The notes under the pieces were generated by a model. That model was not told the origin of the DNA and searched no databases. It was given only the letters and a program-made list of their open reading frames with translations. Below are positions 20,608 through 37,284 of a stretch of DNA of 64,000 nucleotides, in pieces (positions within the stretch are counted from its first letter, which is position 1; each line of letters begins with the position of its first letter). Origin of the DNA: a virus. The stretch is taken from the IMG/VR virus record IMGVR_UViG_3300034069_002177, positions 46,907 to 110,906 of that record, one strand, 5' to 3'. The translations under genes and the position numbers were made by a program.

Positions 20608-20637
20608 TTGACAACATCGGTTTCGTTGGTGTACAGT
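20608..20637 (+). promoter_or_regulatory. internal sigma-A-type promoter
   Basis: TTGACA-N18-TACAGT. Confidence 0.65.
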
Positions 20638-20667
20638 TATGGAACAAGACAACAGAGAAAAAGATAT

Positions 20668-20749
20668 GCCCCTGTGGCGGAATTGGCAGACGCGCTCGAC
20701 TCAAAATCGAGTTCTTCACGGAGTATCGGTTCAAGTCCGATTAGGGGTA
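20668..20749 (+). tRNA. tRNA-Leu(CAA)
   Basis: CTCGA-CT CAA AA-TCGAG. Confidence 0.95.
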
Positions 20750-20793
20750 CAGGTTGTAGGCTGAAAATAACCAGCATAGTCAGAAGCCTATAT

Positions 20794-20867
20794 GCTCTCG
20801 TAGCCCAATCGGCAGAGGCGGTTGACTTAAAATCAATACAGTGTGGGTTCAAGTCCCACCGAGAGTA
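20794..20867 (+). tRNA. tRNA-Leu(TAA), short variable arm
   Basis: GTTGA-CT TAA AA-TCAAT. Confidence 0.9.
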
Positions 20868-20910
20868 CGCAACACAAGCAATAGAACAAATCCCATTAAT
20901 TAACACACCA

Positions 20911-20983
20911 CGGGGTGTGGCGCAGTTGGTAGCGCGCCCGTTTTGGGGGCGGGAGGTCGCAAGTTCGAATCTTGTCACCCCGA
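20911..20983 (+). tRNA. tRNA-Pro(TGG)
   Basis: CCCGT-TT TGG GG-GCGGG. Confidence 0.95.
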
Positions 20984-21036
20984 CGTAACAATGCATTACA
21001 CTAACAAGTAACGCAAGCAACAAAAGCAACACGTAT

Positions 21037-21109
21037 TCCTCGATAGCTCAATTGGCAGAGCATCGCACTGTTAATGCGACGGTTCTTGGTTCGAGTCCAA
21101 GTCGGGGAG
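21037..21109 (+). tRNA. tRNA-Asn(GTT)
   Basis: TCGCA-CT GTT AA-TGCGA. Confidence 0.95.
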
Positions 21110-21269
21110 CTAGGCGGTAGGGTCGCCTCTACACGTCGATTACGACAAACATCATGCAACAGTGCGTAGCACGCGCTTTCGCCCAATGGGCGGACGACCG
21201 CCTCTACTAGCCGCATGGTCATAAAGTCGAAATCATTAGTACGGTGCATCCGCGCCTACCGCCCATGTT

Positions 21270-21436
21270 TTCCTTGAAGCACACTGGCAGTGCGCGCCTA
21301 CATAGTAGGTCTTAAGAGATGGAGGTTCGAATCCTCCCAGCCGCCCTCGTGACGGCTGTAGTTCAATTCGTAGATTGGTAGAACAGACCGACATAGCCGG
21401 TAACAAAGAATGTGGGTTCAAATCCCACCAAGGAAT
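21270..21436 (+). ncRNA. tandem double tRNA-like RNA with swapped acceptor strands
   Basis: two D/anticodon/T sets; TTCCTTG pairs CAAGGAA, CAGCCG pairs CGGCTG. Confidence 0.65.
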
Positions 21437-21618
21437 CGAAACAACATCTAGCAGCATGGTCAGGAAGATGACTTGGATGTTGTTGTATCGAGGTATGAAT
21501 GAACCCGCGTAGCGAACCATTCCCATCTTCACCTATTCTTTCCTCGTAAGAGGCGGTGTTTCCTAAATCCCTCGGGATGGACGGACTCAGGGCTTTCCGT
21601 AAAGTTTCGTCCACCAAA

Positions 21619-22007
21619 GGGGATGACTTGGATTCGACTGATTGATACAGGCGAAAAGAAGCGTGCCGTGGGTTGTCTGGCGACTACGTAAATTACACCA
21701 GGCAAAAAGAAATGCAAACGCATCTCGCAACGACTTCGCACTCGCAGCCTAACCGCTACGAGGCTTAATGGAGTCTGTCTCAGCTTCCAATGCAGAATGA
21801 TTCACGGCAGGAACTAGGCATCAGCAAAGAGGAATCCGATGCGTCACCTAACTACTGGGTGGCAAGCAGCGTAATCATGGTAGATAGACGATAACGAGCC
21901 GGTGTCCATACCAACTCGTTGCAGTCGATAACCGCCCCAAATGGACTACGCACGTAGAAGGTTTCGGTTTATCAAGCAACACGCGGGTTCGATTCCCGCC
22001 ATCTCCA
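21619..22007 (+). ncRNA. ssrA: tmRNA, tag ANASRNDFALAA (21714-21752)
   Basis: GGGGATG..GGATTCGAC 5' end, GCGGGTTCGATTCCCGCCATCTCCA 3' end, G3-U70, tag ending ALAA-stop. Confidence 0.95.
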
Positions 22008-22013
22008 CGACCA

Positions 22014-22088
22014 CTCACGAGAAGTACCGGCTCGATACCGGCATGATCCACCATATGGGTCATCTGCATGGCAACAGACTACGTGGGA
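22014..22088 (+). ncRNA. circularly permuted tRNA-like domain with Ala identity
   Basis: T-arm, ATGATCC-ACCA, TAT, GGGTCAT; G3-U70 and A73. Confidence 0.5.
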
Positions 22089-22203
22089 GCACATATTTAG
22101 GTGAGAGTCCTTAGTCCAGACCGGGAGGGTATGACCGGGAGAGGGTGAAAGCCCCTAGGTGCCGCCTAACGTGGACGGCACCGCACAAACTTACAAGTAC
22201 GAG

Positions 22204-22233
22204 TTGACAGAAGCCATTTCTGCCTGTCATACT
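22204..22233 (+). promoter_or_regulatory. internal sigma-A-type promoter
   Basis: TTGACA-N18-CATACT. Confidence 0.55.
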
Positions 22234-22254
22234 GAATGAACAGCAACACAATAT

Positions 22255-22343
22255 GGAGTGGTCGCATAGTCCGGCTTAGTGCAGCAGTCTTGAAAACTGC
22301 CGTGGCGTTAAAACCACCGTGGGTTCAAATCCCACCCGCTCCG
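22255..22343 (+). tRNA. tRNA-Ser(TGA)
   Basis: GCAGT-CT TGA AA-ACTGC; long variable arm. Confidence 0.95.
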
Positions 22344-22386
22344 CGAAGGTTATAGGGTAGACATACCCGTTCCCTTTCACAATCAA

Positions 22387-22550
22387 AAGATGGCGTGTGG
22401 CGCAATTTGGCTGACGCAGTGGACTAGTACCTAACCCCTACGACTGGTGAGTTGTAATGGCATGGACGGAATCCACCGGAAATAGGGAGGCATTGGAAAC
22501 GATGTCCCACCCGAGGTTCCTTGCAGGTTCGAGTCCTGTCACGTTGTCTT
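22387..22550 (+). ncRNA. expanded tRNA-like RNA with insert in the anticodon loop
   Basis: 11-bp acceptor-like stem, D-arm, GTGGA/TCCAC enclosing ~48 nt, T-arm GCAGG-TTCGAGT-CCTGT. Confidence 0.55.
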
Positions 22551-22563
22551 CGATTGTGCCTTC

Positions 22564-22636
22564 GGGTTTTTAGCTCATCTGGTAGAGCGCTGCTTTTGCA
22601 AGGCAGAGGTGAGGGGTTCAAGTCCCCTAAGATCCA
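22564..22636 (+). tRNA. tRNA-Ala(TGC)
   Basis: TT TGC AA loop; G3-U70. Confidence 0.95.
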
Positions 22637-22764
22637 CGAGTCAAAGAAACTTCGGTTTTGATTTGACTTAGATAGAAATTGTCTGGTAGTGTTGTGATAA
22701 CAACAACGGAACTTGAAAAGACAACAGTGGAAATACAAGCTCAACGAAATTGGTTGAGCGAAAT

Positions 22765-22851
22765 GGAGCCGTCGCATAGTGGCCTAGTGCACCACCCTGC
22801 TAAGGTGGAGTACCCGCAAGGGTACCGTGGGTTCAAATCCCACCGGCTCCG
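22765..22851 (+). tRNA. tRNA-Ser(GCT)
   Basis: CCACC-CT GCT AA-GGTGG. Confidence 0.95.
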
Positions 22852-23045
22852 CAAAGACCGAATGAGTAACCCCTGGTACGGGTAAAAATTCAGTCCTCGC
22901 TCAAATCAGCATCATCGATGCGGCTTCCAGCCGTGAAGTTGGAAAGTACATCGAGGGTGGTACCACTGAAACGAGCAATTGCCTTGGATGACTCAATAGG
23001 GGTGCGAAATGACATAAGTCATGAGCTTCACTGAATAGGCATTAT

Positions 23046-23132
23046 GGAACCGTCGCATAGTGGTCTAGTGCACCACCTTGGAAAGGTGGCATACCTGCAA
23101 GGGTATCGAGAGTTCGAATCTCTCCGGTTCCG
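23046..23132 (+). tRNA. tRNA-Ser(GGA)
   Basis: CCACC-TT GGA AA-GGTGG. Confidence 0.95.
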
Positions 23133-23331
23133 CGTTGTCGTCTTCCAAGCGACAATCCCGACAAACCTGGGTGAAGGGTTGTTCAATGATGGCTAAGAAC
23201 TAAAACCGAGCCATTGTGTATTTTCTTCATTCTTGCACTGACTAGAATGTTGCGGTTGATCCCGTTAGGAAATCTACGGAACGGCTTCGGTTGTTTCGGG
23301 TCGTTAGGGTTTGATCACCCTTTCGACGCAT

Positions 23332-23405
23332 GCCTCGCTAGCTCAATTGGCAGTAGCATCTGACTCTTAATCAGAGGGTTCCCGGTTCAAGTCCGGGGCG
23401 AGGCA
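23332..23405 (+). tRNA. tRNA-Lys(CTT)
   Basis: TCTGA-CT CTT AA-TCAGA. Confidence 0.95.
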
Positions 23406-23839
23406 CAAAGTATCTTCGGATACTTGCAGTAAGACAAGGCTTCCATGTACGCCGCAAGGTATGTAGAGAAATCGCTTCGCATGGGTGAGTCTTACTGAGA
23501 ACGTAGAGATGCGATTAGAGGCGTTCTTTCCACACTTGTACACCGGATCGGTCCTAGGAGCCTATCGTCACAGACGGCACATCCGAGGGAGGGGTTGATG
23601 AACCCTTGTACGTATACATCGTCGCTTCAAGCACAGCCTCTGTGAGGAACTGTTGCCAGTTCGGACGTAACCCGAACGCTCGTAAGTTCACAGCCTATGT
23701 AGAGGGGCTGGTGGGGCGCAATCCCATTGCGGTTATGAAAAGCCGAAAACTTGCAGCATTTTCGTCATGTGCGGGGTTCAATTCCCCAAGGGCGTCGGCT
23801 CAAACCCGGCGCGGTTGGATTCATTACCGTGGCGAATAT

Positions 23840-23913
23840 GGTGGGCGTAGCTCAGTTGGTAGAGCGCTGGCTTGTGGAGCCGGATGTCGCGGGTTCGAGC
23901 CCCGTCGTTCACC
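23840..23913 (+). tRNA. tRNA-His(GTG)
   Basis: CTGGC-TT GTG GA-GCCGG; G-1:C73. Confidence 0.95.
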
Positions 23914-24088
23914 CGAATTACGTTCTGATTCAGATACCAAAAAGGAATCAGAAAGTCATCGAACAGCTTGGTATCTCTGTTGTGGATGGTGTGAAGTCGT
24001 ATCGAGTCATCTTTTGCGTCGGCAGGCGTTGATGACAGGTGATGCATTCCGAAAGGAACTGCCCGTCGATAGCTTCACATAAGTTTTT

Positions 24089-24179
24089 GGAGGGGTCGCA
24101 TAGTCCGGCTTAGTGCAGCAGTTTCGAAAGCTGCCGTAGGTGTCACATCCTACCGTGGGTTCAAATCCCACCCTCTCCG
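24089..24179 (+). tRNA. tRNA-Ser(CGA)
   Basis: GCAGT-TT CGA AA-GCTGC. Confidence 0.95.
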
Positions 24180-24289
24180 CAATAGAGTTCAAGCAGCCCT
24201 GATTACCAGGAAGCATAAGATGACACTTGGACCTAGATTTCTTCATCGACTAGCAGATTCGTTCTGACTTGTCAGATGAAGTAAGTAAT

Positions 24290-24369
24290 GCCCGATTGGT
24301 GGAATTGGCAGACACGCTGGCTTTAGGTGCCAGTGCTTAGGCGTGAGAGTTCAAGTCTCTCATCGGGTA
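24290..24369 (+). tRNA. tRNA-Leu(TAG)
   Basis: CTGGC-TT TAG GT-GCCAG. Confidence 0.95.
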
Positions 24370-24515
24370 CGCACGGATTCACAAGACGACTGGTGCAATG
24401 GTCGTTGCATAGTGCCTTGTTGTGATGATGTTGCCGGTTGGATCGGTATTGCACAATTGCCCCCCAACAAATCAGGTCCACCGAACGTCGTGATGACAGT
24501 GCGGTGGGCTTCTGA

Positions 24516-24589
24516 CGCTCAGTAGCCAAGATGGTAAGGCGCACCGCTCATAACGGTGTTACGCGGTGGTTCGAGTCCACCCTGAGCGA
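24516..24589 (+). tRNA. tRNA-Met/Ile2(CAT)
   Basis: CACCG-CT CAT AA-CGGTG. Confidence 0.9.
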
Positions 24590-24826
24590 CAAAGGTGATG
24601 AGGAAGGTCTTGACTACACTCATTATCTAACGGGACGACCCGGCAAGGTCGCTTTCGGTTCTCAGGTTTATCCCGTACACCCCTGAGACAGCAGTGTGAA
24701 ACCTTTTGCCGAGGGTTGCTGCATTTTGAGACAGAAGAATGCATGTGATGTTATTGCCTCCGCGCTGACCTCTCCATGTTGGATATCTGTCGGATCCTAA
24801 GTTGGTCACACTCGGCTTAGTTGTCT

Positions 24827-24900
24827 GGCGCGTTAGCACAATTGGTAGTTGCAGCACCCTTTCACGGTGCAGGTTACGGGTTCGAGCCCCGTACGCGTCA
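24827..24900 (+). tRNA. tRNA-Glu(TTC)
   Basis: GCACC-CT TTC AC-GGTGC. Confidence 0.9.
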
Positions 24901-24916
24901 CGTTTCTTGTTGGTAC

Positions 24917-24946
24917 TTGACAAGATAGGTAAGTCACCTGTAAGGT
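24917..24946 (+). promoter_or_regulatory. internal sigma-A-type promoter
   Basis: TTGACA-N18-TAAGGT. Confidence 0.65.
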
Positions 24947-24961
24947 GATAGTAGTAAATAT

Positions 24962-25035
24962 GGCGCTGTAGCACAATTGGCAGTTGCATCGGTTTCTCAG
25001 ACCGAAGGTTGCGGGTTCAAGTCCCGTCAGCGTCA
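24962..25035 (+). tRNA. tRNA-Glu(CTC)
   Basis: TCGGT-TT CTC AG-ACCGA. Confidence 0.9.
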
Positions 25036-25164
25036 CGATAACCCAAACGCTCCGAGGAATGTCGGAATCACTGGCGGGTTAGATAACTAACGAGAGACAC
25101 TACGTAGCCTTCCTCAGGAGGTCTTTCGTCCAGAGTCGCCTACTGAGGCGGAAGCGACTACCAT

Positions 25165-25238
25165 GCCATCTTAGCTCAGTTGGAGAGAGCGACTGTTTGA
25201 AAAGCAGTAGGTCACCGGTTCGGCTCCGGTAGTTGGCA
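25165..25238 (+). tRNA. tRNA-Phe(GAA)
   Basis: ACTGT-TT GAA AA-GCAGT. Confidence 0.85.
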
Positions 25239-25265
25239 CACTGGTTCCTTTTAGGACCACGTTAT

Positions 25266-25340
25266 ACCCTTGTAGTTCAGTAGAGATTAGGGCGCTTGTC
25301 GATGAGACAGGAGGCGGTGGTTCAAGTCCACCTGGGGGTA
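25266..25340 (+). ncRNA. tRNA-like RNA, non-canonical anticodon loop
   Basis: intact T-arm GGTGG-TTCAAGT-CCACC; loop CGATGAG. Confidence 0.6.
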
Positions 25341-25457
25341 CGGTTGAGAGACTTTGCAAGGTCTCGATGCAAGTTCGGCGGGAATTGAACCCGTGCGGGG
25401 CGCAAGCTACGGTTGTCGTATGAGGAAGCTTACTCAGATAGTCTTCGCGTAGCACAT

Positions 25458-25530
<73 letters not shown>

Positions 25531-25611
25531 CAAACGGTGAGAGCCACTGGTTCTTAGCCGTCTTATCTCTACATCAACATCCAATCTATAGATACGGCGT
25601 TGCTGTAGGGT

Positions 25612-25685
25612 TCCCTGTTGCGACTAATGGAATATGTCGTCTTCACAAGAACGAAGAGATGCCAGTTCGACTCTGGTACGGGGAG
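25612..25685 (+). ncRNA. tRNA-like RNA with 8-nt loop ACAAGAAC
   Basis: all four stems pair; anticodon loop non-canonical. Confidence 0.65.
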
Positions 25686-25866
25686 CTTAGTGGTACCGGC
25701 ACAGGGTGTACAACCATCGTCGGTGCGGTCGGGAGTGATATCCCCTGACCAGTCGTGCTTGGAAGGCTGCGTAATGTAGTACGGGGTTCGATCCCCGTCA
25801 TGAGCCACTTATACTTCTTCAAGGGTTGACCGGAATCAAGATGCCGTGATACCATTGAAGGCATAA

Positions 25867-25941
25867 TGCGGGGTAGGGCAGTTCGGTAGCCCGCCAGGCT
25901 CATAATCTGGAAGTCGCGTGGTTCAAATCCCGCCCCCGCAA
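25867..25941 (+). tRNA. tRNA-Met(CAT), initiator-like body
   Basis: CCAGG-CT CAT AA-TCTGG. Confidence 0.85.
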
Positions 25942-26163
25942 CGTTACAACGAAGATACAAACATCGAAGGGTTCTTGTATCGGGATTACTAGAAAGCGCA
26001 ACCTGCGTGTAACTGGGTTGTGTTAGGTGGGGACCGTAAGGTTCGTGCCGACACCGGCAAGAGAACGAGACCTAGCGTGAGAGCGAGAGGTCAGGTGAAT
26101 TGGTACTTCGTACCGCGAGAAGCCCGAGCTTAGATGCACACGTTCCACTTGCCGGTTTTGTTT

Positions 26164-26236
26164 GGGTCGTTAGCTCATCTGGTAGAGCGCTGCTTTTGCA
26201 AGGCAGAGGTGAGGGGTTCAAGTCCCCTACGATCCA
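26164..26236 (+). tRNA. tRNA-Ala(TGC)
   Basis: near copy of 22564..22636 with altered acceptor pairs. Confidence 0.95.
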
Positions 26237-26336
26237 CGCTTCCTCTCCAATCACCATTCTCGGCTCATTACCTTGGATGGCGGAGAGCCCCCACTTCGAT
26301 ACCGGTTACGGGGTGGGGGATAGAAGCAACCAATAT

Positions 26337-26410
26337 AGGGGTATAGCTCAGATGGTTAGAGCGCTTCGCTGATAACGAAGAGGTCTTCGGTTCAATTCCG
26401 AATATCCCTA
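26337..26410 (+). tRNA. tRNA-Ile(GAT)
   Basis: CTTCG-CT GAT AA-CGAAG. Confidence 0.95.
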
Positions 26411-26440
26411 CTGCTCATTGTCACTTCTAGAATCTGGCGG

Positions 26441-26470
26441 TTGACAAAGAGTTACGACACACGATAAAGT
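26441..26470 (+). promoter_or_regulatory. internal sigma-A-type promoter
   Basis: TTGACA-N18-TAAAGT. Confidence 0.6.
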
Positions 26471-26518
26471 GGTGGTCGCGGTAAACAGTCCGCACAGGCT
26501 CTCAACATTGAGGGTTCT

Positions 26519-26593
26519 GGCGCATTAGCACAATTGGTTAGTTGCATCGCCCTTTCACGGCGAAGGTTACGGGTTCAAGTCCCGTATGCGTCA
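26519..26593 (+). tRNA. tRNA-Glu(TTC)
   Basis: TCGCC-CT TTC AC-GGCGA. Confidence 0.9.
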
Positions 26594-26594
26594 C

Positions 26595-26671
<77 letters not shown>

Positions 26672-26696
26672 CTTCCAAACCAATATCAGTTTGGAC

Positions 26697-26726
26697 TTGA
26701 CATCTACACAAAGTTGTTGCTAAGGT
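26697..26726 (+). promoter_or_regulatory. internal sigma-A-type promoter
   Basis: TTGACA-N18-TAAGGT. Confidence 0.65.
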
Positions 26727-26795
26727 TGTTCTATAAGCAAGAAAGAACAACACTTGGTAACTCCATAGAGAAAGAAATGCCGCGCAAGCGGTTTT

Positions 26796-26868
26796 GGCTG
26801 TATAGCTCAGGGGTGAGAGCACTTCGCTGATAACGAAGGGGTCGGTGGTTCGATTCCACCTACAGCCA
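26796..26868 (+). tRNA. tRNA-Ile(GAT)
   Basis: CTTCG-CT GAT AA-CGAAG. Confidence 0.95.
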
Positions 26869-27067
26869 CTCGGAACACAACAACTCGCATACCTGCCGGA
26901 CCAATCATCTGAGCAGCGCGGGGCGGAATGTTCGTCTCGAAAGAGAAATCGGCGGTATCTAGCGGTCCTTGGTTGCAAGGGTGCCGCAAGATGGATGAGT
27001 ACCGAGCGTTAACCTCATCAGATGATACGAAGCGAGATTGATTACCAAGCTTCTAAGTCGTCAACAT

Positions 27068-27140
27068 GCCCCTTTAGCTCAGTTGGTAGAGCGCTACGTT
27101 TACACCGTAGATGTCATCGGTTCGAGCCCGGTAGGGGGCA
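27068..27140 (+). tRNA. tRNA-Val(TAC)
   Basis: CTACG-TT TAC AC-CGTAG. Confidence 0.95.
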
Positions 27141-27346
27141 CTGCACCAAGCGGTTATGCATGACTGACTATGGTGCTTGACACATACCAAGTGTCTAGGC
27201 GGGGTTCCTGAATGTGACCTAGTTGTCGGTTGGCTCCAAACCGTCCCTTATGGACTACGAGGTTACCGCGTGTCCCGTTTAGCGTTCTTGCGTGAAGAGC
27301 GTTGTGGGTGTCCGTCTCAGTGGTACGAGACGTAATCCCACAGAAT

Positions 27347-27419
27347 GCGCCCGTAGCTCAGGGGATAGAGCGGTTGACTACGGATCAACAGGTCGGGGGT
27401 TCGATTCCCTTCGGGCGCA
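27347..27419 (+). tRNA. tRNA-Arg(ACG)
   Basis: GTTGA-CT ACG GA-TCAAC. Confidence 0.95.
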
Positions 27420-27434
27420 CGCAACACAAAGATT

Positions 27435-27675
27435 TTCAACCAACTGGACTGTCGCGGGCGAAAGCTTGAGGAAAGTCCGGGCACTTGACCAACTACCGTG
27501 TGGTAGATGAACTCCGCGTTCATCGCTCAAGAACCACTAAGCCCAACCTAAAAAGCAGGGTGCAGGATGTGTGCAACGCCAAACAGTCTGAGGGAGTTGG
27601 TCTCCTGTGAAAGACGGGTAGGCGGCTGAGACAGATGACAGTCTAAAACAGAACCCGGCTTACGGGTTGGTTGAA
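27435..27675 (+). ncRNA. rnpB: RNase P RNA, unusually short (~241 nt)
   Basis: P1 TTCAACCAAC/GGTTGGTTGAA; GAGGAAAGTCCGGGC and AAAACAGAACCCGGCTTA signatures. Confidence 0.9.
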
Positions 27676-27680
27676 TTAAT

Positions 27681-27764
27681 GCCCGCATGGCGAAATTGGC
27701 AGCCGCGTTGCGTTCAGAGCGCAATGACCGAATGGTCGTCCGAGTTCAAGTCTCGGTGTGGGCA
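27681..27764 (+). tRNA. tRNA-Leu(CAG)
   Basis: TTGCG-TT CAG AG-CGCAA. Confidence 0.95.
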
Positions 27765-27855
27765 CTGCTGACCTAGGTCAGCCACTAATGAAAGGCTACA
27801 CGAAATGATGGACTCCACCTAACCCTCCTTTGTTGACTATACAAAGGAGGTGAAA

Positions 27856-28035
27856 ATGAGAAAATTCACATACACAGACACCCGCGACTGGAAGGTCGCT
27901 GATGTCGATGGCAAGGCTATGACCTTGCTCGTGACGGATGCAAAGGGCAACAAAAGGAACGTCGAAAAGTTCGACGGCTTCCGCTCTGCATCCAGAGCAG
28001 CCAAGAAGCTTGGTGGTTTCGCCGTTAGGGCGTAA
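27856..28035 (+). CDS. small basic protein inside the tRNA array
   Basis: AAAGGAGGTG RBS; 59 aa, K/R-rich. Confidence 0.7.
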   Translation: MRKFTYTDTRDWKVADVDGKAMTLLVTDAKGNKRNVEKFDGFRSASRAAKKLGGFAVRA

Positions 28036-28151
28036 CTAGGCTTTCAGATTTCTCCGGTGTGCGGAGAATGAAATACCCAGTCGTGGACCTTGCAGAAACG
28101 AAGCGGCTGGCGAGTGGTAGGCATGTACTGCACTGTCCTACCACTCAAAAT

Positions 28152-28224
28152 GGCTCTGTAGCTCAGTTGGTAGAGCGTTCGACTGAAAATCGAAAGGTCA
28201 CCGGATCGATGCCGGTCGGAGCCA
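28152..28224 (+). tRNA. tRNA-Phe(GAA)
   Basis: TTCGA-CT GAA AA-TCGAA. Confidence 0.95.
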
Positions 28225-28374
28225 CGACCGATTCCATACAGTTTTTGCGGACTGCGATGGATCTCACTACTAGCCACGGGTACTTCGTTGCGTGCTGAGT
28301 AGGACATGAGGATTGGTGCCTCATCAATGAATAGACTGGTTGGGATACCGCAAAATTTCCAACTGGTCGCACTA

Positions 28375-28448
28375 GCCTCGCTAGCTCAATATGGCAGAGC
28401 ATCAGACTTTTAATCTGCGGGTTCTCGGTTCAAGTCCGAGGCGGGGCA
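28375..28448 (+). tRNA. tRNA-Lys(TTT)
   Basis: CAGA-CT TTT AA-TCTG. Confidence 0.9.
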
Positions 28449-28473
28449 CACATCATTGGGATTCCAATGACTA

Positions 28474-28557
28474 GATAGTAGTGATGTAATTGGCAGCACG
28501 TCCGCCTTGTGTACAGAGGGCTAACGGAAGGAATCGACTCGAAATCGTTCTACTATC
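28474..28557 (+). ncRNA. tRNA-like RNA with extended anticodon arm
   Basis: GATAGTAG/CTACTATC stem, D-loop AATTGGCA, T-like loop CTCGAAA. Confidence 0.55.
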
Positions 28558-28684
28558 GAAAACCGTGGCGTATGGTTTATTACGCAGTCACCGAAACATG
28601 GCGTAGGCGAAGCGCCCTAGAAGTTGGATTAGGTGAAAGGTGTCGGAAGCTCCCTCAGCAGGAGCCTAGTCTTGGTCACCATAT

Positions 28685-28757
28685 TCCTCTATAGCTCAAT
28701 TGGCAGAGCAGTCGGCTGTTAACCGACAGGTTCGTGGTTCGAATCCACGTGGGGGAG
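28685..28757 (+). tRNA. tRNA-Asn(GTT)
   Basis: GTCGG-CT GTT AA-CCGAC. Confidence 0.95.
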
Positions 28758-28880
28758 CAATGCGAGTATCCGGTACGCAAGGTTGCAACGCTCGCAGAAG
28801 TCCTAACTTTCCCACAGCAGTCCGTGAGGGAAGTCAAGCAACGGAAATGAGAAATCATAGGGTTGGCGGTTAGGCAACAT

Positions 28881-28952
28881 GGCGATGTGGTGTGAGTGGT
28901 TAGCCGTTTCTCTGCAAAAGAAAATATGCCGGTTCGATTCCGGTCGTCGCCT
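28881..28952 (+). tRNA. tRNA-Cys(GCA)
   Basis: TTTCT-CT GCA AA-AGAAA; U73. Confidence 0.85.
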
Positions 28953-29008
28953 CAATGCTCGATTTGACTTTCACCGGTCAGTCGTTCTACCATGTTCTAT
29001 ATGAACAT

Positions 29009-29083
29009 GGGGTGATAGCCAAGCTGGTTAAGGCACCGAACTCATAATTCGACGATTCGTGGGTTCAAGTCCCACTCACCCCA
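29009..29083 (+). tRNA. tRNA-Met/Ile2(CAT)
   Basis: CGAA-CT CAT AA-TTCG. Confidence 0.9.
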
Positions 29084-29257
29084 CTCAACTTCATCACTAC
29101 TCCGATGAGGTAGGGTTCCGATAAGCACCATGTGTGCTAAGATTGGGGCTCGCAGAACCACCCGGTTCTGTTGTGTGCTGGATTCCGTGTTGTGCGCACG
29201 ACGTGGAATTCATCGGTCGAAGTCCGACGTATGTAACCGACGAAACAGGTGCTACAT

Positions 29258-29330
29258 GCCCGTATAGCTCAGTTGGTAGAGCGCCAGCATGACTCGCTGG
29301 ATGTCGGGGGTTCAAATCCCTCTACGAGCA
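29258..29330 (+). tRNA. tRNA-Val(GAC)
   Basis: CCAGC-AT GAC TC-GCTGG. Confidence 0.85.
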
Positions 29331-29352
29331 CTGCTTCTTGACACGAAGCTAT

Positions 29353-29607
29353 TCCTGAGAAATCGGGATGTTCCGCCCTGACCTTCGCATTGTGAAGTTC
29401 CTTACCTCGGTTTGGATGAACCACTGCGACCCTTGGAGCCACCAAGTCCCTACTCCGGTAGGGATGAACCACCACGACCTTCGCGTCCACAATATCCTCG
29501 CCTCGGCTTGGATGATCCTCCCCAACCTTCAGATTCATCACTTCCTCGCTCCGGCTTGGATGAACCGCGATGACCTCTACCGTGGGTACACTTTCGTTTC
29601 GACGGGA
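29353..29607 (+). repeat. 48-nt periodic array: six tetraloop hairpins flanking five tRNA-antisense segments
   Basis: TG(A/T)(A/T)CC at 29369, 29417, 29465, 29513, 29561; covarying hairpins with GAAA/CTCG/TCCG/TTCG loops. Confidence 0.9.
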
Positions 29608-29622
29608 ATTATGGAAATGGAC

Positions 29623-29652
29623 TTGACAGAGTATGGTCTGGTACTGTAAAGT
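29623..29652 (+). promoter_or_regulatory. internal sigma-A-type promoter
   Basis: TTGACA-N18-TAAAGT. Confidence 0.65.
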
Positions 29653-29720
29653 GGTAAACGTCTTGTGAGAGCAAGACTTCGGAACTTCACAACACAATAG
29701 CGTTTAGTAAGAAAGATTTT

Positions 29721-29794
29721 GCTTCTGTAGCTCAGATGGTTAGAGCGCCGCCCTGTCACGGCGGAGGTCGCCGGTTCAAGTCCGGTCAGGGGCG
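29721..29794 (+). tRNA. tRNA-Asp(GTC)
   Basis: CCGCC-CT GTC AC-GGCGG. Confidence 0.95.
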
Positions 29795-30041
29795 CTATCA
29801 AAGGAACCGCGTTAGCGGGTTGCCTGCGATACAGCAAGACACCAGATACCGTCAAATATCTGGTACCCACACTTCTACCGTCGATGCGGTAGGTTCCGTT
29901 GACACGGAAGGATCGTTTCAAGTGAAGGTCTTGTACTTTGTTGGGCGTCGTCCTCCGGGACTGGCGCAGCCGATGGGTTCGGTTCCGTGACTCATCTCCC
30001 TTTTATGCCGAGTGGTTGCAAACGCGAGGAAACGGAAATAT

Positions 30042-30114
30042 GGGGTCTTAACTCAGTTGGTAGAGTGCCTGCTTTGCAAGCAGGATGTCAGGAGTTCGAT
30101 TCTCCTAGACTCCA
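30042..30114 (+). tRNA. tRNA-Ala(TGC)
   Basis: CCTGC-TT TGC AA-GCAGG; G3-U70. Confidence 0.95.
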
Positions 30115-30254
30115 CGTTGGTAGACGAAAGTCTTACCTTGGTAGATGAACACCTACCCTGCTCCAGTAATGGACAGGCTCCGAAGCAGAGATTCGGAATC
30201 CTACGTAAGACTGCTAGCGTCGCACATAGGAATATCGAGTCAAGTGTTCAACAT

Positions 30255-30325
30255 GGATTTTAGCTCAGTTGGTAGAGCACCTGCTTTCAAGCAGAATTTC
30301 GGGAGTTCGATTCCCCCATAATCCG
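30255..30325 (+). pseudogene. degenerate tRNA (Ala(TGC)-like, 6-nt loop TTTCAA)
   Basis: D-arm intact; anticodon loop one base short; acceptor irregular. Confidence 0.55.
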
Positions 30326-30469
30326 CGAACAAGAAGCTGTTGAAGTTTAGGGATTAACTACCCGAGTGCAGATACGTGTGTGTACTGTTTATACCCTAGT
30401 CGCCGGTTAGGATGATGACTGCTTGGTAGTTCTTGCAGTGATTGTTCATGAATACGAGCTAGGCTCTGT

Positions 30470-30540
30470 GGGGATGTAGCTTAATGGTAAAGCCTTAGTC
30501 TTCCAAACTAATGACGCGGGTTCGATTCCCGTCATCCCCT
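30470..30540 (+). tRNA. tRNA-Gly(TCC)
   Basis: TTAGT-CT TCC AA-ACTAA. Confidence 0.95.
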
Positions 30541-30803
30541 CTGTGGCATCATCGAAATTACGGTGAAGGCTTCCTAACGCCTCTGTGTGAATCGCAGTGA
30601 AAAGTTAGGACTCTGCCGGAGTAGAGTGGTTGCATAGACTAAACCGGAAACAGGGCTTGCGGACCTGGGCGTGATACGGGATTCGGCTATCACAGACCTC
30701 TTTATGAGGCATATGGATGAAAGTTCCACAGTGAAGCATTTAGGAAATTCGAAGAATCCAAACGCGTTGGATGAAATCGTATAGACTAAGTGCATCACGA
30801 CAT

Positions 30804-30875
30804 GCGGATGTGGCGCAGTGGTAGCGCATAACCTTGCCAAGGTTAGGGTCGCGAGTTCGAATCTCGTCATCCGCT
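30804..30875 (+). tRNA. tRNA-Gly(GCC)
   Basis: TAACC-TT GCC AA-GGTTA. Confidence 0.95.
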
Positions 30876-31043
30876 CGTAAGCAGCATTTGACTGCTAGGG
30901 CTTCTAGGATATCCATTGGGTATCCTTTTAGTCGAGATCCCGTCCAACCGCAAGGTTGGCGTAAGCGGTCGTTCAAATACACCTTCTCTAACTCCGGTTG
31001 GCATCGAAAGATGCGTTCTTGGGAAGCGTGTTAAACCGGATAT

Positions 31044-31115
31044 GCGGTCATAGCCTACGGGTATGGCAACTTGGCTTCCAGCCAAGAGTTGATGGTTCAA
31101 GTCCATCTGACCGCT
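31044..31115 (+). tRNA. tRNA-Gly(TCC)
   Basis: CTTGG-CT TCC AG-CCAAG. Confidence 0.85.
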
Positions 31116-31438
31116 CAAAGCCATCCAGAAGGCGGTATAAGCGAGTAACTAACGCCGATACCATCCGATGCTGGCTCATCCTTAGAATGGAACGTGGCGC
31201 TTGTGAGACTGTAGTGGTCAAGCACGTGTTACCGGAAATTCTCAGGCTCTGATTCTCGACTAGTAATCGGGAAGCGGGTTTGCTTCACCCGCCCTAGCTG
31301 CGACGAGTAGTGGCGAAGGAATAAGCACCTCAGCAATGCGAGGCTAAGCGTTGCCACTATTGGGTCACTGTTTACTAGACAAACCCTTTAGGATTCGGTA
31401 AGCTAGAGACTAAGAAGCTTCCTAGCTTCCGAATACAT

Positions 31439-31533
31439 GGGACTGTAGCTCAAAAGTCACCCTCAAGGTGGCGGGTAGAGCAAGGAGCGGCGCGCGTTCC
31501 AGAAGGTTATCGGTTCGATCCCGATCAGTTCCA
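31439..31533 (+). ncRNA. Ala-like tRNA variant with hairpin inserted in the D-loop
   Basis: GGGACTG/CAGTTCC-A with G3-U70; D-loop insert GTCACC..GGTGGC; loop GG CGC GC. Confidence 0.65.
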
Positions 31534-31575
31534 CGGTCTTCTAGTCGTCCTTCGGGATGGCTAGAACTCCACCAT

Positions 31576-31650
31576 GCGAAAGTAACTCAGCGGTAGAGTT
31601 CCTCGTTGCCAACGAGGTTGTCGCGGGTTCGATCCCCGTCTTTCGCTCCA
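31576..31650 (+). tRNA. tRNA-Gly(GCC)
   Basis: CCTCG-TT GCC AA-CGAGG; encoded CCA. Confidence 0.95.
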
Positions 31651-31735
31651 AGGTAGGAATTTGTCAAACGCAGCCCGGTGCCCTGACGACATCGATGCTG
31701 TAGGGGTTCCTGCCTGTAACTTATTTTCATGATTT

Positions 31736-31808
31736 GCCCTCGTAGCTCAGGGGATAGAGCAGGAGCCTTCTAATCTCTTGGTCGCAGGTTCGAATCCTGC
31801 CGAGGGCA
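31736..31808 (+). tRNA. tRNA-Arg(TCT)
   Basis: CT TCT AA loop. Confidence 0.95.
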
Positions 31809-31909
31809 CAACGGTCGTCAATGGGCGTACACGACCGGGTTTACTTGGCGTCCAAAACAGGCGGCTTCCTATGAGTGTATGGAGGCTGATCCTCGACTCG
31901 ACACTCACT

Positions 31910-31982
31910 GCGTTTGTAGCTCAGTGGATAGAGCAGTTGACTACGGATCAACAGGTCGGGGGTTCGAATCCCTCCAGGCGCA
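31910..31982 (+). tRNA. tRNA-Arg(ACG)
   Basis: GTTGA-CT ACG GA-TCAAC. Confidence 0.95.
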
Positions 31983-32041
31983 CAGATTTGCATGGTAGCT
32001 GTCTAGCTGCTATGCTTTTCACGAGGGTAAAACCTTGAAAT

Positions 32042-32114
32042 GCCGACTTGGCGCAATTGGTAGCGCAACTGTCTTGTAAACAGTAGGTTGCGGGTTCAAG
32101 TCCCGCAGTTGGCT
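32042..32114 (+). tRNA. tRNA-Thr(TGT)
   Basis: ACTGT-CT TGT AA-ACAGT. Confidence 0.95.
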
Positions 32115-32130
32115 CTCCGAAGGGATAATT

Positions 32131-32493
32131 ATGTACGACTTGTCATTCTCTGAATTTGACGACGAACCTCGCGCCCTCCCCATCGATGTAGCGCGTAATC
32201 GCATCGAGCCGTTGTTCCCGAATTTGAAGTTCACAAGTGCTGGCGGGTCAGTTCCCTTCCAAGCCGAGGGCTACTACATGGGTATCGCGGACTTTTACTT
32301 TCGGTTCCGACATGACTCGGCTAGTCTCACGATTGGTCGTCCTGGTCGGCACACCCCCGAAAATGATTTCGTCATCTACAAAGATGACGTGACTGGCGAG
32401 GATTACGCGGGAACGCTCGACGATGATGAATTTGTAGCGTTGTTCACGGAACTCATGGAGCGTATGCTTGCAGAGAAACCACTTCCTCGCTAA
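32131..32493 (+). CDS. hypothetical protein inside the tRNA array
   Basis: GAAGGGA RBS; 120 aa; PFQAEG..FYFRFRH. Confidence 0.8.
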   Translation: MYDLSFSEFDDEPRALPIDVARNRIEPLFPNLKFTSAGGSVPFQAEGYYMGIADFYFRFRHDSASLTIGRPGRHTPENDFVIYKDDVTGEDYAGTLDDDEFVALFTELMERMLAEKPLPR

Positions 32494-32503
32494 GAAATAG
32501 ACT

Positions 32504-32539
32504 GGTGATGGTCAGGTCAGAAATGAAGCAGCCATCATC
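32504..32539 (+). ncRNA. SRP-RNA domain IV-like mini-hairpin
   Basis: GGTGATGG-TCAGG-TCA-GAAA-TGA-AGCAG-CCATCATC. Confidence 0.7.
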
Positions 32540-32542
32540 TTT

Positions 32543-32615
32543 GCCCTTGTAGTTCAGCGGATAGAGCGTCATCTTCCGAAGGTGAATGTCGCTGGTTCGA
32601 ATCCAGTCAAGGGCA
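32543..32615 (+). tRNA. tRNA-Arg(CCG)
   Basis: TCATC-TT CCG AA-GGTGA. Confidence 0.9.
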
Positions 32616-32713
32616 CAAGCAACACGAAGTGGCGATGGCAGGGTAAGTTGCAACGACTGTCACGCTCCCTATGCATGGGGTTGTGTTGTGAGGTGAAGGG
32701 AAATCACCAAATT

Positions 32714-32785
32714 CGTACTGGTCGTTCAAGTCAGGACTGCTTGTTAAAAGTGAGATGGGGGTATCGAATCCTTCCTAGTACGCCA
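32714..32785 (+). ncRNA. degenerate tRNA-like RNA
   Basis: CGTACTGG/CTAGTACG then CCA; T-like arm GGGGG-TATCGAAT-CCTTC. Confidence 0.45.
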
Positions 32786-32851
32786 AACTTCTTGTAACAC
32801 GACCGGGTTCAGCCCAGTCGTGTGATATAGCCAGACACCGATGGTGTTTAT

Positions 32852-32923
32852 GCCACTTTAGCTCAGGGGTAGAGCAAACGCTTCGTAAGCGTTAGGTCGT
32901 CAGTTCAAATCTGACAAGTGGCT
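32852..32923 (+). tRNA. tRNA-Thr(CGT)
   Basis: AACGC-TT CGT AA-GCGTT. Confidence 0.95.
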
Positions 32924-33183
32924 CGGAATCGGGAACAAGGTCTCTCGGTAACGGACAGGTACAAAACGAGAACCCAGTGCACATGGACTCGCACAAAATC
33001 CTGTTACCGTTTCGGTGTCCGTCTTCTTACGTTTTCGGGCACCGAACATTCTTCGAGGTTCAGCACTCGACGTATTTCATCTCAGGATACGGTACGATAC
33101 CAAAGGCTGGTCGGAGGTACACCGAAGGTAATCTGTTAGTGCAGATGATCAACCATGCACAGCGCGGAGTGATTCGCGTTTGT

Positions 33184-33255
<72 letters not shown>

Positions 33256-33291
33256 CGTAAAGACTGCTACGGTAGTTATTCACGAAAATAT

Positions 33292-33367
33292 GGGTTCTTA
33301 GCTCAGTTGGTAGAGCATCACGCTGGCAGCGTGAGGGTCAGGGGTTCGAATCCCCTAGGATCCACCA
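33292..33367 (+). tRNA. tRNA-Ala(GGC)
   Basis: TCACG-CT GGC AG-CGTGA; encoded CCA. Confidence 0.95.
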
Positions 33368-33396
33368 TATAGACACCTTGACGAAACGGACCAAAG

Positions 33397-33870
33397 TTGA
33401 CCGAGCTAGTAATCGCTCCAATGAATGTCGAAGATATTCAGTCCGTTATCGACCATGTAACCAATGTATCCCTAGCTTCGTCGCATCTCGACCACCCCAA
33501 TATCGGTGCATGGCTTGAAGGTGAATACAATCCTGCTGATGTACTCGCAAAGCTTGATTCGAGCATCTGTCTCATTGTGAGAGATAACGAGCACATTGTC
33601 GGTACCGGATTCATCGATACGACAACTGGCTACATTTCGGGTGTCTATGTCTCCAATAAGGGACACGGTACTGGTCGTTTGATTGTCGATAGGTTGCTTG
33701 AAGAAGCAGCAGCAGAGGCTGGTACGAAACACTTCACTGCGAGTGTTCATCCTGACTCGAAAGCCATGCAGCACATTCTTTCAACGTCTGGTTTCACGGC
33801 AACGCATGTGGACCCTCACGTTGTTTACTATGTTGGTACCGACTTCATGATTTGGGAAAAGTCGGTATAG
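33397..33870 (+). CDS. GNAT-family acetyltransferase
   Basis: IVGTG..ISGVYV..KGHGTGRLI acetyl-CoA loop; C-terminal ..SGF. Confidence 0.8.
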   Translation: MTELVIAPMNVEDIQSVIDHVTNVSLASSHLDHPNIGAWLEGEYNPADVLAKLDSSICLIVRDNEHIVGTGFIDTTTGYISGVYVSNKGHGTGRLIVDRLLEEAAAEAGTKHFTASVHPDSKAMQHILSTSGFTATHVDPHVVYYVGTDFMIWEKSV

Positions 33871-33876
33871 CAACAC

Positions 33877-33948
33877 GCCTCGTTAGTTCAGCGGAAGAAT
33901 GCCTCTTTCCTAAAGAGTTGGTCGCTGGTTCGAATCCAGTACGGGGCA
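33877..33948 (+). tRNA. tRNA-Arg(CCT)
   Basis: CTCT-TT CCT AA-AGAG. Confidence 0.9.
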
Positions 33949-34303
33949 CTGGGAAAACACCAACAGATTCGATTAGTCATCGAGGAACTAAGTTGGTGAG
34001 GGTGGTCGTTCACCGTGAAAAGAACGATGTCTGGTGATGTAGACGAGGTACCTAGCCTGAATCACAAGCGGATGAGACGGTTAGCTGGTTGGTGGACGCT
34101 CGATAAGGGTGGTTTCCGTACTCGCTGATTTGTGGGGTATAGATTCCGAATACTGCGACCCATCGTGGAAGACAACAAGCGGCTTGACTGGTCGCCCAAG
34201 TGACAAGTGTGGTGGAAATCCACTAGTAATCAAGAGCGTGGTACAGGGATCATAACCCTGCCTCCGTGAAGGTTTTAAGCCGGAGCGGCTTGGTTGCGAT
34301 TTA

Positions 34304-34377
34304 CGGAGTATGGGAAAATTTGGCAATCCGCGCCGTTCGGGACGGCGAGAATGAGGGTTCAAATCCCTCTACTCCGA
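34304..34377 (+). tRNA. tRNA-Pro(CGG)
   Basis: CGCCG-TT CGG GA-CGGCG. Confidence 0.9.
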
Positions 34378-34380
34378 CAT

Positions 34381-34545
34381 GGGGCGAGTGAGTCCGCGAA
34401 ACCTTGGTGTTGACAACACAAGTAGACGTGGGCGCGGTCGCGTGTTTTCTCGACACCCTGTATCGTCAAATGCAGTAGGGTTGAGGAACAGAAATGCGGG
34501 CAGCAATGTGCCGCTACCGTAGGTCGAGACTACGGCGCTCCACCA
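34381..34545 (+). ncRNA. tRNA-like RNA with Ala-type acceptor and ACCA end
   Basis: GGGGCG/CGCTCC-ACCA, G3-U70, T-like arm CCGTAG-GTCGAGA-CTACGG. Confidence 0.55.
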
Positions 34546-34607
34546 AACTTTTGACACAGATTGGTCAACCCCGGCGCTTTAGGGGCTGAGAACGGCTCAC
34601 AGAGCCA

Positions 34608-34728
34608 GTGGTCGTGGGCGAAGCGTGAAGGCATCCTGGGTAAGTCCTTCCGGCAAGCTACCAACGCGAATTCTGAGGTTCATGTCTTGGAAGTGCTGGG
34701 GACGTGGGTTCGATTCCCACCGACTGCA
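34608..34728 (+). ncRNA. tmRNA-TLD-like small RNA
   Basis: GTGGTCG/CGACTGC-A, G3-U70, GGAC-GTGGG-TTCGATT-CCCAC. Confidence 0.5.
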
Positions 34729-34754
34729 CAACGTCAGCAATGCGCTGACCGTAT

Positions 34755-34828
34755 GGTGTTCGTAGCTCAATTGGCAGAGCGGCAGGTCGTGAACCTGTTC
34801 GTTGCGGGTTCAAGTCCCGTCGTCCACC
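34755..34828 (+). tRNA. tRNA-His(GTG), atypical
   Basis: GCAGG-TC GTG AA-CCTGT (C33); acceptor mismatches. Confidence 0.7.
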
Positions 34829-34860
34829 TGAAACGATACCCTTATCGTCAAAAGGAATAA

Positions 34861-34934
34861 CAGGATGTAGCGCAGTTTGGTAGCGCGCCAGTTCGGGGAA
34901 CTGGAGGTCGCGGGTTCAAACCCCGCCATCCTGA
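34861..34934 (+). tRNA. tRNA-Pro(GGG)
   Basis: CCAGT-TC GGG GA-ACTGG. Confidence 0.85.
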
Positions 34935-35110
34935 CACTTATCGACATCCGTTAACGAATGACACCGTACTGTTTTATGGTATAAACACCCCAATAGAGGG
35001 GTGGTTGTTCGATAGCGGGTACATTCCACATAAAAATGGCTTGACAGATGAGACAATTTCATACACGGCAAAATGGTTGCTGTATCTACATCCGAAAGCT
35101 CATCCCGACC

Positions 35111-36786: not shown

Positions 36787-37284
36787 ATGACCGGTGTAAT
36801 TGTACTGAATGCAAGTTATGAGCCCCTAGGCGTTGTTTCGCTCCACAAGGCGATGAAGAACATCATCCGTGGTCGTGTCGAAGTTGTACGTGCGCACGAT
36901 TCTGATGTCATCCACACGTCTTCTGGTGTGCTCGCTGTGCCTATCGCTGTTCGTTTCACCAAGATGGTTCGGGTTCCTTACCGTAATGGTGAGATGCAGC
37001 CGCACCTGAAGAAGGTTTTGATCCGTGACAACTACACGTGTGCCTACTGCGGTAAGCACGCTAAGACAGTTGACCACATCCAGCCTAAGTCCCGTGGTGG
37101 TAAGAACACGTGGATGAACCTCATTGCTGCTTGCCAGCCTTGTAACGGTAAGAAGGCGAACAAGACTCCTGAGGAAGCACACATGGTTCTTCAGTTCCAG
37201 CCGCACCCTGTCTACCAGCAGGATGTCCTGACGGCGAACATTGCCAAGACAGGCTTCAGCATGGATACTCTGTTCGACTTCTGA
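36787..37284 (+). CDS. HNH endonuclease (McrA-like)
   Basis: VLNASYEPL, RDNYTCAYCG, TVDHIQPKSRGG, ACQPCNGKK. Confidence 0.95.
   Translation: MTGVIVLNASYEPLGVVSLHKAMKNIIRGRVEVVRAHDSDVIHTSSGVLAVPIAVRFTKMVRVPYRNGEMQPHLKKVLIRDNYTCAYCGKHAKTVDHIQPKSRGGKNTWMNLIAACQPCNGKKANKTPEEAHMVLQFQPHPVYQQDVLTANIAKTGFSMDTLFDF

Follow-up and report, generated by a model that had tools for sequence, protein, structure and literature searches.

The window analysed here is a stretch of 64,000 nucleotides, corresponding to positions 46,907 to 110,906 of the IMG/VR record IMGVR_UViG_3300034069_002177; positions refer to this window, except for those preceded by C1, which belong to the whole record. It contains a long tRNA island and, within it, between tRNA-Val(GAC) and tRNA-Asp, an array of six hairpins separated by five guide segments (Table 1). 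The scan that revealed the promoter-like site upstream of the array found 2 sites matching the promoter consensus, versus 0.9 expected in shuffled sequences. A cas operon is present on the same record and is followed by a further, single-guide unit.

Table 1. Features of the array, of its tRNA island and of the cas locus on the same record.
Feature	Position	Strand	Description
tRNA island	17993..34935	+	64 tRNA calls and a tmRNA
Promoter-like site	28964..28993	+	Consensus match preceding tRNA-Met, tRNA-Val and the array; a shared transcript may start here
tRNA-Val(GAC) gene	29258..29331	+	Directly upstream of the array
Degenerate type I-E mini-array	29353..29607	+	Six hairpins, five guides, 48-nt period
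Repeat 1	29353..29375	+	6-bp hairpin from 29353 (16 nt), handle ATGTTCCG from 29368; resembles the first repeat beside cas6e
Guide 1	29376..29395	+	tRNA-Ala(CGC) gene, from tRNA position 52 to 33; only 12 and 18 mismatched
Repeat 2	29399..29423	+	Hairpin from 29399 (18 nt), handle ATGAACCA from 29416
Guide 2	29424..29443	+	Nearest common match tRNA-Pro(GGG); mismatches at 10, 12, 15, 18 and 20
Repeat 3	29447..29471	+	Perfect 7-bp hairpin from 29447 (18 nt), handle ATGAACCA from 29464
Guide 3	29472..29491	+	tRNA-Pro(CGG); mismatches at 10, 12, 18 and 19
Repeat 4	29495..29519	+	Hairpin from 29495 (18 nt), handle ATGATCCT from 29512
Guide 4	29520..29539	+	tRNA-Arg(ACG); mismatches at 12, 16, 18 and 20
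Repeat 5	29543..29567	+	Hairpin from 29543 (18 nt), handle ATGAACCG from 29560
Guide 5	29568..29587	+	tRNA-Val(CAC); mismatches at 12, 18 and 20
Terminal hairpin	29592..29607	+	16 nt from 29592, without handle
cas3-cas8e-cas7-cas5-cas6e	C1:114277-121760		3.4 kb past the window end, 38 kb from the array
Single-guide unit	C1:121765-121840		After cas6e

The starts of the five handles are spaced exactly 48 nt apart; the exact 48-nt period, the six hairpins and the five segments reported in a preliminary description of this DNA were therefore borne out, together with its preference for the plus strand, on which all six hairpins fold better than on the minus strand. Aligned with the canonical type I-E repeat from a Mycobacterium plasmid (L003), the internal units match it in having two 7-bp arms around a 4-nt loop, followed by a 7-nt tail, and the array as a whole displays the 6-7-bp stem, 4-nt loop and 8-nt handle of type I-E repeats. 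Near-identical repeats and spacers of 31-33 nt, also typical of type I-E, are missing, and the period is 13 nt shorter than the 61 nt found in the canonical arrays of plasmid loci L002 and L003. Cas6e cuts at the stem base of the repeat hairpin; cutting at this position is predicted to generate products of 48, 48, 48, 48 and 47 nt, with an 8-nt handle and a guide of about 20 nt. Judged by its sequence, the array is a degenerate type I-E CRISPR array in the canonical register, with guides of about 20 nt. The earlier proposal of a new RNA family thus lost its support, since the units are type I-E repeats and a matching Cascade and Cas3 are encoded; TGAACC, formerly taken for a partner of the T-loop, is most readily interpreted as the 5' handle of the crRNA.

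Repeat finders miss the array because its repeats conserve shape and not letters: Tandem Repeats Finder reported 2.2 copies only (period 48, score 117) and an exact periodic 9-mer scan of the whole record found nothing, the array included. No Rfam family reached its gathering score on the array. Folding of the entire 281-nt stretch gives no advantage over shuffled sequences (z 0.23), indicating that the structure of the array is local. A lone I-E repeat-like hairpin with a handle-like tail is also present at 17405-17429, before the tRNA island and within a longer inverted repeat; the 20 nt following it have no good match in the record.

Two related contigs, X6 and X7, cover the array (two of the four runs examined). 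The 15 substitutions listed for them in 29344-29552 are all located in leader, hairpins, handle or linker; in repeat 2 the pair C29405-G29410 is swapped to G-C, a compensatory change, in repeat 1 the base pair 29358-29363 is deleted on both sides, and the hairpin differences also include loop changes. Guide positions 1-20 are unchanged among the differences listed, beyond which lie another 72 rows; in both contigs a block of 69 letters stands in place of 29442-29509, and a difference in guide 3 is therefore possible. The one-base change in length that this block introduces shifts the reading frames of the overlapping ORFs; coding by these ORFs was therefore rejected, in agreement with the non-coding nature first attributed to the array. 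Five patterns revealed no homologous array in IMG/VR, the nine stretches matched by one of them being four other I-E arrays and five unrelated repeats or chance matches, and BLAST searches of phages and plasmids with the array returned weak, chance-level matches only. The four other type I-E arrays, on viral contigs L080, L081, L083 and L085, have near-canonical repeats and some or all spacers of about 20-21 nt; none of these arrays has tRNA-like spacers, and a short motif recurs among the spacers of L080.

Cas3, Cse1, Cas7, Cas5 and Cas6e of the 202,737-base record all score above their family cut-offs. A Cas1 family search of the record, which is possibly partial, found no match, so that cas1 of the type I-E adaptation module appears to be missing; no stand-alone cas11 (cse2) gene occurs in the operon. 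Cas8e has 684 aa, a length shared by seven close homologues, and its last 150 aa match Cse2 below the cut-off (E about 0.01-0.02) in three of four proteins and with two libraries. The predicted structure of the 684-aa protein is poor over residues 36-410 and includes a confident helical C-domain; for this domain there was no Atlas match, and a PDB sequence search returned Cse1 alone. Cas8e likely carries a fused Cas11. The Cas7 clade includes nine relatives at 52-76% identity, and five metagenome loci carry a Cas7 of this clade; a search with one query did not find it in three actinobacterial megaplasmids, a Microbacterium phage and G242, a genome of the targeted family described below. Cas3 identity is 75-86% in all three relatives covering cas3, that of the Cascade subunits is lower (37-76%), and all Cas3 nuclease and helicase motifs are retained; these comparisons indicate that Cas3 is intact and the best-conserved gene of the system. 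It could serve ordinary arrays elsewhere on a larger element.

Other genes of the element code for pilus ATPases, an AAA_10 ATPase, FtsK, a replisome, gyrase, ligase, ribonucleotide reductase, a CCA-adding enzyme and RtcB. The record was searched for one terminase family, tyrosine integrase and serine recombinase with no match, and none of 51 element proteins tested matched virion families. The best plasmid matches of the helicase are 545-607-kb Curtobacterium plasmids. IMG/VR classifies the record as a provirus; by its gene complement it looks plasmid-like. The same Cas7 is present on a 654-kb contig, and the element may therefore be three times as long as the record. An N-terminal motif of the type DKNGK..T.HK is shared by many unrelated proteins, for example those of window ORFs 14029, 16364, 47260 and 50677.

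Every guide begins at tRNA position 52, with T-loop bases 53-55 forming a PAM, AAC. Cascade leaves every sixth guide base unread, and the guides conform to this rule at positions 12 and 18, which are mismatched in all five; position 6 is matched in all five. In G242, which carries all five sites, mismatches over guide positions 1-19 are found at 10 of 15 sixth positions versus 5 of 80 others; the corresponding p of 7e-7 is optimistic, since G242 was picked for matching and the search itself had left these positions partly free. In the case of guides 2, 4 and 5, however, the G242 target is the common allele of the family. AAC stands beside all five best sites of this genome, identified without a PAM requirement, so that the targets show the 5' AAN-type PAM of type I-E; in a Streptomyces (S. 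mobaraensis) I-E system AAC is likewise the PAM that was tested (PMC13572051).

The likeness of the guides to tRNA is beyond chance. Over 19 nt, the fewest mismatches of guides 1-5 versus 87 distinct actinomycete tRNA genes, a set collected using these guides and hence biased toward them, are 2, 4, 4, 3 and 2, values equalled by 0, 1, 5, 0 and 0 of 300 shuffles each. Complementarity to foreign tRNA sequence had been claimed in the preliminary description, and its guesses of Ala, Pro, Pro, Arg and Val agree with the gene matches in the family; the span it gave, tRNA positions 32-52, has to be reduced to a pairing over about 34-52, with every guide mispaired at positions 41 and 35 (the middle of the anticodon). 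Guide 2 has the weakest target assignment, and one Arg(CCG) allele matches its positions 1-13.

From the nearest named relatives of the element, the Curtobacterium plasmids, the targeted actinomycete family would be Microbacteriaceae. A search of 121 genomes of one actinomycete family, performed with guide bases 1-17 preceded by AAC, any base being allowed at positions 6 and 12, detected sites with at most one mismatch for guide 1 in 38 genomes (21 exact, by hand count), guide 3 in 19, guide 4 in 71 and guide 5 in 92; reversed-pattern controls for these four guides gave 0 matches in the family sample. For guide 2, 91 of the 121 genomes matched at up to two mismatches, mostly at one recurring site, and its control also matched some genomes. 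Guide 5 was found in just 9 of 201 genomes drawn class-wide, a sample that includes two unpublished genomes, absent from the family counts; compared with the 92 family genomes, this indicates a fit specific to the family. An exact match to guide 4 is present in 121 genome stretches, within tRNA-Arg(ACG) in 101 of them; none of the 80 matches listed is titled Microbacteriaceae, and the family Arg(ACG) allele departs from guide 4 at position 16. The best family genes have 0, 3, 2, 2 and 1 read-position mismatches with guides 1-5, and the best genome still leaves guides 2-4 with 2-3 of them over 20 nt. Rival tRNA islands were also considered as targets, using 25-41-kb stretches of three actinobacterial megaplasmids, one Microbacterium phage and one Bifidobacterium plasmid; they are not favoured, having at least three read mismatches, worse than the family chromosomes.

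The element's own tRNA genes do not match guides 1-5, the best of them showing 4, 7, 5, 5 and 4 read-position mismatches. This confirms the earlier remark that no own tRNA is matched perfectly, as well as the two differences noted over tRNA 36-52 between unit 5 and the Val gene at 27068. Among the 64 tRNAs of the element no gene was called for Ala(CGC) or Val(CAC).

A sixth guide, with the same build as the array units, is found behind cas6e not only here but also in L024, L025 and L027, the three relatives reaching this region, and is retained across elements whose Cas7 identity falls to 52-76%. All 61 family genomes searched carry its pattern, and the loci checked are Glu(TTC) and Glu(CTC) tRNA genes. 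In all four elements it keeps A at positions 6 and 12 despite other target bases; we infer that selection maintains these sixth-position mismatches, which perhaps weaken the pairing of free guides with tRNA. The small ORFs at C1:121921-122325 and at window 58541-58999 look alike, with no function assigned by sequence; a look-alike of the former also follows the cas6e-side guide in L025. The C1:121921-122325 ORF is a candidate regulator of the cas system.

The five guides very probably serve the element's own Cascade. The array would be transcribed together with the upstream tRNAs, and the element's Cas6e would process its RNA into 48-nt crRNAs; these would be loaded on a shortened Cascade containing four Cas7 and a Cas8e-Cas11 fusion, which would hold in place the single, otherwise loosely bound Cas11 copy. 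Once bound to the DNA of a tRNA gene beside the AAC PAM, the complex would recruit Cas3, which would cut, instead of the complex merely binding, with the host chromosome as the relevant target; the element would meanwhile provide its own, unmatched tRNAs, as part of a takeover of the cell that would be either regulated or terminal. For such a purpose, tRNA genes would be conserved, mutation-resistant addresses sharing one PAM. That the whole chain, from array through Cas6e and short Cascade to Cas3 cutting of host tRNA genes, represents the main function is plausible, if a little short of probable; it was chosen because Cas3 is the most constrained component and no other guides were seen.

Data on engineered complexes bear on this point. 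E. coli Cascade with a 20-nt spacer is described as having four Cas7 and one loosely held Cse2, and interference persists (PMC5159557); conversely, PMC6859484 reports that S. thermophilus Cascade with spacers 6, 12 or 18 nt shorter does not support Cas3 cleavage, so that these sources conflict on whether complexes shortened by 12 nt cut. The inactivity of the short S. thermophilus complexes and the read mismatches retained by guides 2-4 speak against cutting; constant cutting, moreover, would bring nothing to a stable plasmid and would be affordable only in a regulated or terminal state. Two further points weigh against the proposed chain: the Cas11 match is below its cut-off, and Cas3 may work for ordinary arrays beyond this record. 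A last objection is that RNA polymerase would reach a tRNA-gene-bound complex PAM-distally, an approach that strips dCas9 and dCas12a (PMC9758054). It can be proposed, tentatively and with considerable doubt, that a plasmid-like element uses a fixed CRISPR weapon on host translation genes, resulting in an RNA-guided replacement of the tRNA pool; in equally doubtful terms, short Cascade-Cas3 and guides from a tRNA operon might destroy or silence chosen host tRNA genes, with a guide-proof set being installed.

In the leading alternative, the same guides and complex might instead be aimed at rival temperate phages and integrative elements, through att cores that repeat tRNA 3' halves. Such a role is unlikely, if worth reckoning with, and so is its detailed form, in which silent att copies would be cut or covered and transcription would strip the short R-loop off the intact host gene. 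The guide-1 pattern occurs in 30 viral stretches (19 tRNA 3' fragments, 5 whole genes, 6 unrelated) and the guide-5 pattern in 8 (2 fragments and 1 whole gene among them), many of these stretches lying beside ORFs with a tyrosine-integrase motif in a crude motif scan. Defence of this kind would account for an active Cas3 on a plasmid-like element, and is in line with the polar removal of dCas by RNA polymerase (PMC9758054), evidence that concerns Cas9 and Cas12a only and not Cascade, and with the targeting of tRNA-integrating elements by Lalka phages, though inside those elements (10.64898/2026.04.20.719267). However, the chromosome carries the identical sequence and PAM, and the untargeted control tRNA-Phe is duplicated in about 10 of 51 genomes (hand count), second copies of the targets being no commoner: 3 of 38 for Ala(CGC), 6 of 71 for Arg(ACG) and about 4 of 92 for Val(CAC). 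With tRNA-Phe duplicated at least as often, the targets are not special integration hot spots. Distinctly unlikely is a binding without cutting that would silence selected host tRNA genes and move the tRNA pool off GC-rich host codons, in favour of the set encoded by the element. GCG, CCG and GTG are indeed 3-4 times commoner in family ORFs than in the element (a crude set of 43 ORFs), genes for Ala(CGC) and Val(CAC) are missing from its tRNA calls, and crlRNA systems are described as repressing without cutting via short or partly matched guides; conversely, Cas3 is intact and most conserved, the target sites are within genes and not promoters, and the sixth guide is directed at Glu, an amino acid whose codons are commoner in the element than in the family. 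Regarding Cascade on the non-template strand, published reports diverge, with moderate repression in Luo et al. and slight or no silencing in Rath et al.

Action on tRNA itself, homing and decay are all unlikely. Small RNAs acting on tRNA molecules, as an antisense sponge or as guides of cleavage or modification, with or without Cascade, would fit the complementarity of the guides to the tRNA sense strand, the predicted duplexes of -27 to -33 kcal/mol, near tRNA fold energies, and the three read-position mismatches (guides 2, 3 and 4) that would become U-G wobbles. Nevertheless, Cas3 acts on DNA, all five guides start exactly at a DNA PAM, the 12/18 mismatches, with others, cost a naked duplex 6-17 kcal/mol and remain unread in Cascade, and no Nop-domain protein was found, which makes such an action very improbable. 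Of the modes of action raised in the preliminary description, targeting of tDNA is therefore favoured over sponging or modification of tRNA, as decided by the PAM register and the 12/18 mismatches. The hypothesis that the guides direct an RNA-guided insertion at tRNA genes recalls the homing of CASTs, which typically uses delocalised, repeat-degenerate, short guides near tRNA genes (PMC11656645); with an intact Cas3 and no tyrosine or serine recombinase in the record, its probability is minimal. A TniQ search had no match, and its control likewise matched nowhere. Equally minimal is the probability of a decayed relic or of a decoy RNA soaking up Cas proteins: the repeats differ among themselves and cas1 was not found, but this reading is largely refuted by conservation, namely the compensatory hairpin changes in X6 and X7 with guide positions 1-20 unchanged among the differences listed, the sixth guide kept across elements with Cas7 at 52-76%, and the single register that all five guides share on tRNA genes.

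Compared with known systems, the array resembles canonical type I-E (L002, L003; S. mobaraensis, as described in PMC13572051) in hairpin-handle geometry, cas3-cas8e-cas7-cas5-cas6e order and AAC PAM. It differs by a 48- instead of 61-nt period, guides of about 20 nt, repeats conserved in shape only, the likely Cas8e-Cas11 fusion, no cas1 found, fixed guides on bacterial tRNA genes and its location 38 kb away, within a tRNA island. With the engineered Cascades shortened by 12 nt (PMC5159557; PMC6859484) it shares the 20-nt spacer and the predicted four Cas7 and one Cas11; unlike these it is natural, and the loosely held Cas11 is apparently fused. Degenerate repeats, short fixed guides and partial matches are also features of the crlRNA mini-arrays CreA, CreR and viral Cracr (10.1101/2023.03.03.530964; 10.1101/2024.10.29.618823). 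According to these sources, crlRNAs are directed at promoters of cas or toxin genes and Cracrs rely on host effectors, whereas here tRNA gene bodies are addressed and the element has its own Cascade and Cas3; the main text of the Cracr report (10.1101/2024.10.29.618823) does not contain the word tRNA. The guides have no site with fewer than three read-position mismatches in their own record, and thus lack, within it, the promoter target of crlRNAs. Delocalised crRNAs of I-F3 and V-K CASTs likewise lie outside the cas locus and point at tRNA-gene sites; CASTs, as presented in PMC11656645, are without interference and carry Tns proteins, whereas the present element has an intact Cas3 and yielded no recombinase. 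Cas12r of Thermus Lalka phages is similar as an element-borne CRISPR against tRNA-gene-integrating elements; it is described as type V with normal 32-33-nt spacers, and its targets are inside rival elements, not tRNA or att sequence (10.64898/2026.04.20.719267). TIGR-Tas arrays have variable hairpins between short guides too; their units are reported to contain two 8-12-nt spacers and box C/D motifs and to require a Nop protein (PMC12045711), unlike the units described here, each with one continuous 19-21-nt match. A TIGR-Tas identity was rejected on these grounds and for lack of a match to the Nop domain PF01798, in a search whose control matched 4 of 14, so that divergent Tas proteins could escape it.

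Thus, the system is known in kind, as type I-E, and almost certainly represents a guide array for its own Cas proteins; the novelty would be a compact variant with fixed tRNA-gene guides. A literature survey of titles and abstract openings, with subscription journals and supplements holding spacer tables outside its scope, yielded no tRNA-directed, element-borne or short-spacer I-E system like this; PMC4288209, PMC4288158, PMC6546366, PMC4762764 and 10.1101/2025.09.30.679422 were also considered. If the proposed function is true, this would be a hard-wired CRISPR tool against conserved host genes and not an immune memory, and it would offer a possible, testable reason for the presence of whole tRNA sets on large mobile elements. 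As a natural counterpart of the engineered 20-nt Cascade, it could settle whether such complexes license Cas3. Since shape-conserved, sequence-variable arrays evade ordinary repeat finders, more of them may have been overlooked.

The tRNA island has some further peculiarities. A tRNA-like gene with an enlarged D arm, called by neither ARAGORN nor Rfam, is located at 31441-31534, and odd tRNA genes are found at 19160-19229 (a weak, Rfam-only match), 25266-25341 (a His call with anticodon ATG) and 30255-30326 (an unreadable anticodon). Directly after the island, an HNH endonuclease and the RtcB RNA ligase are encoded at 36787-38587, and a second HNH is found at 45540.
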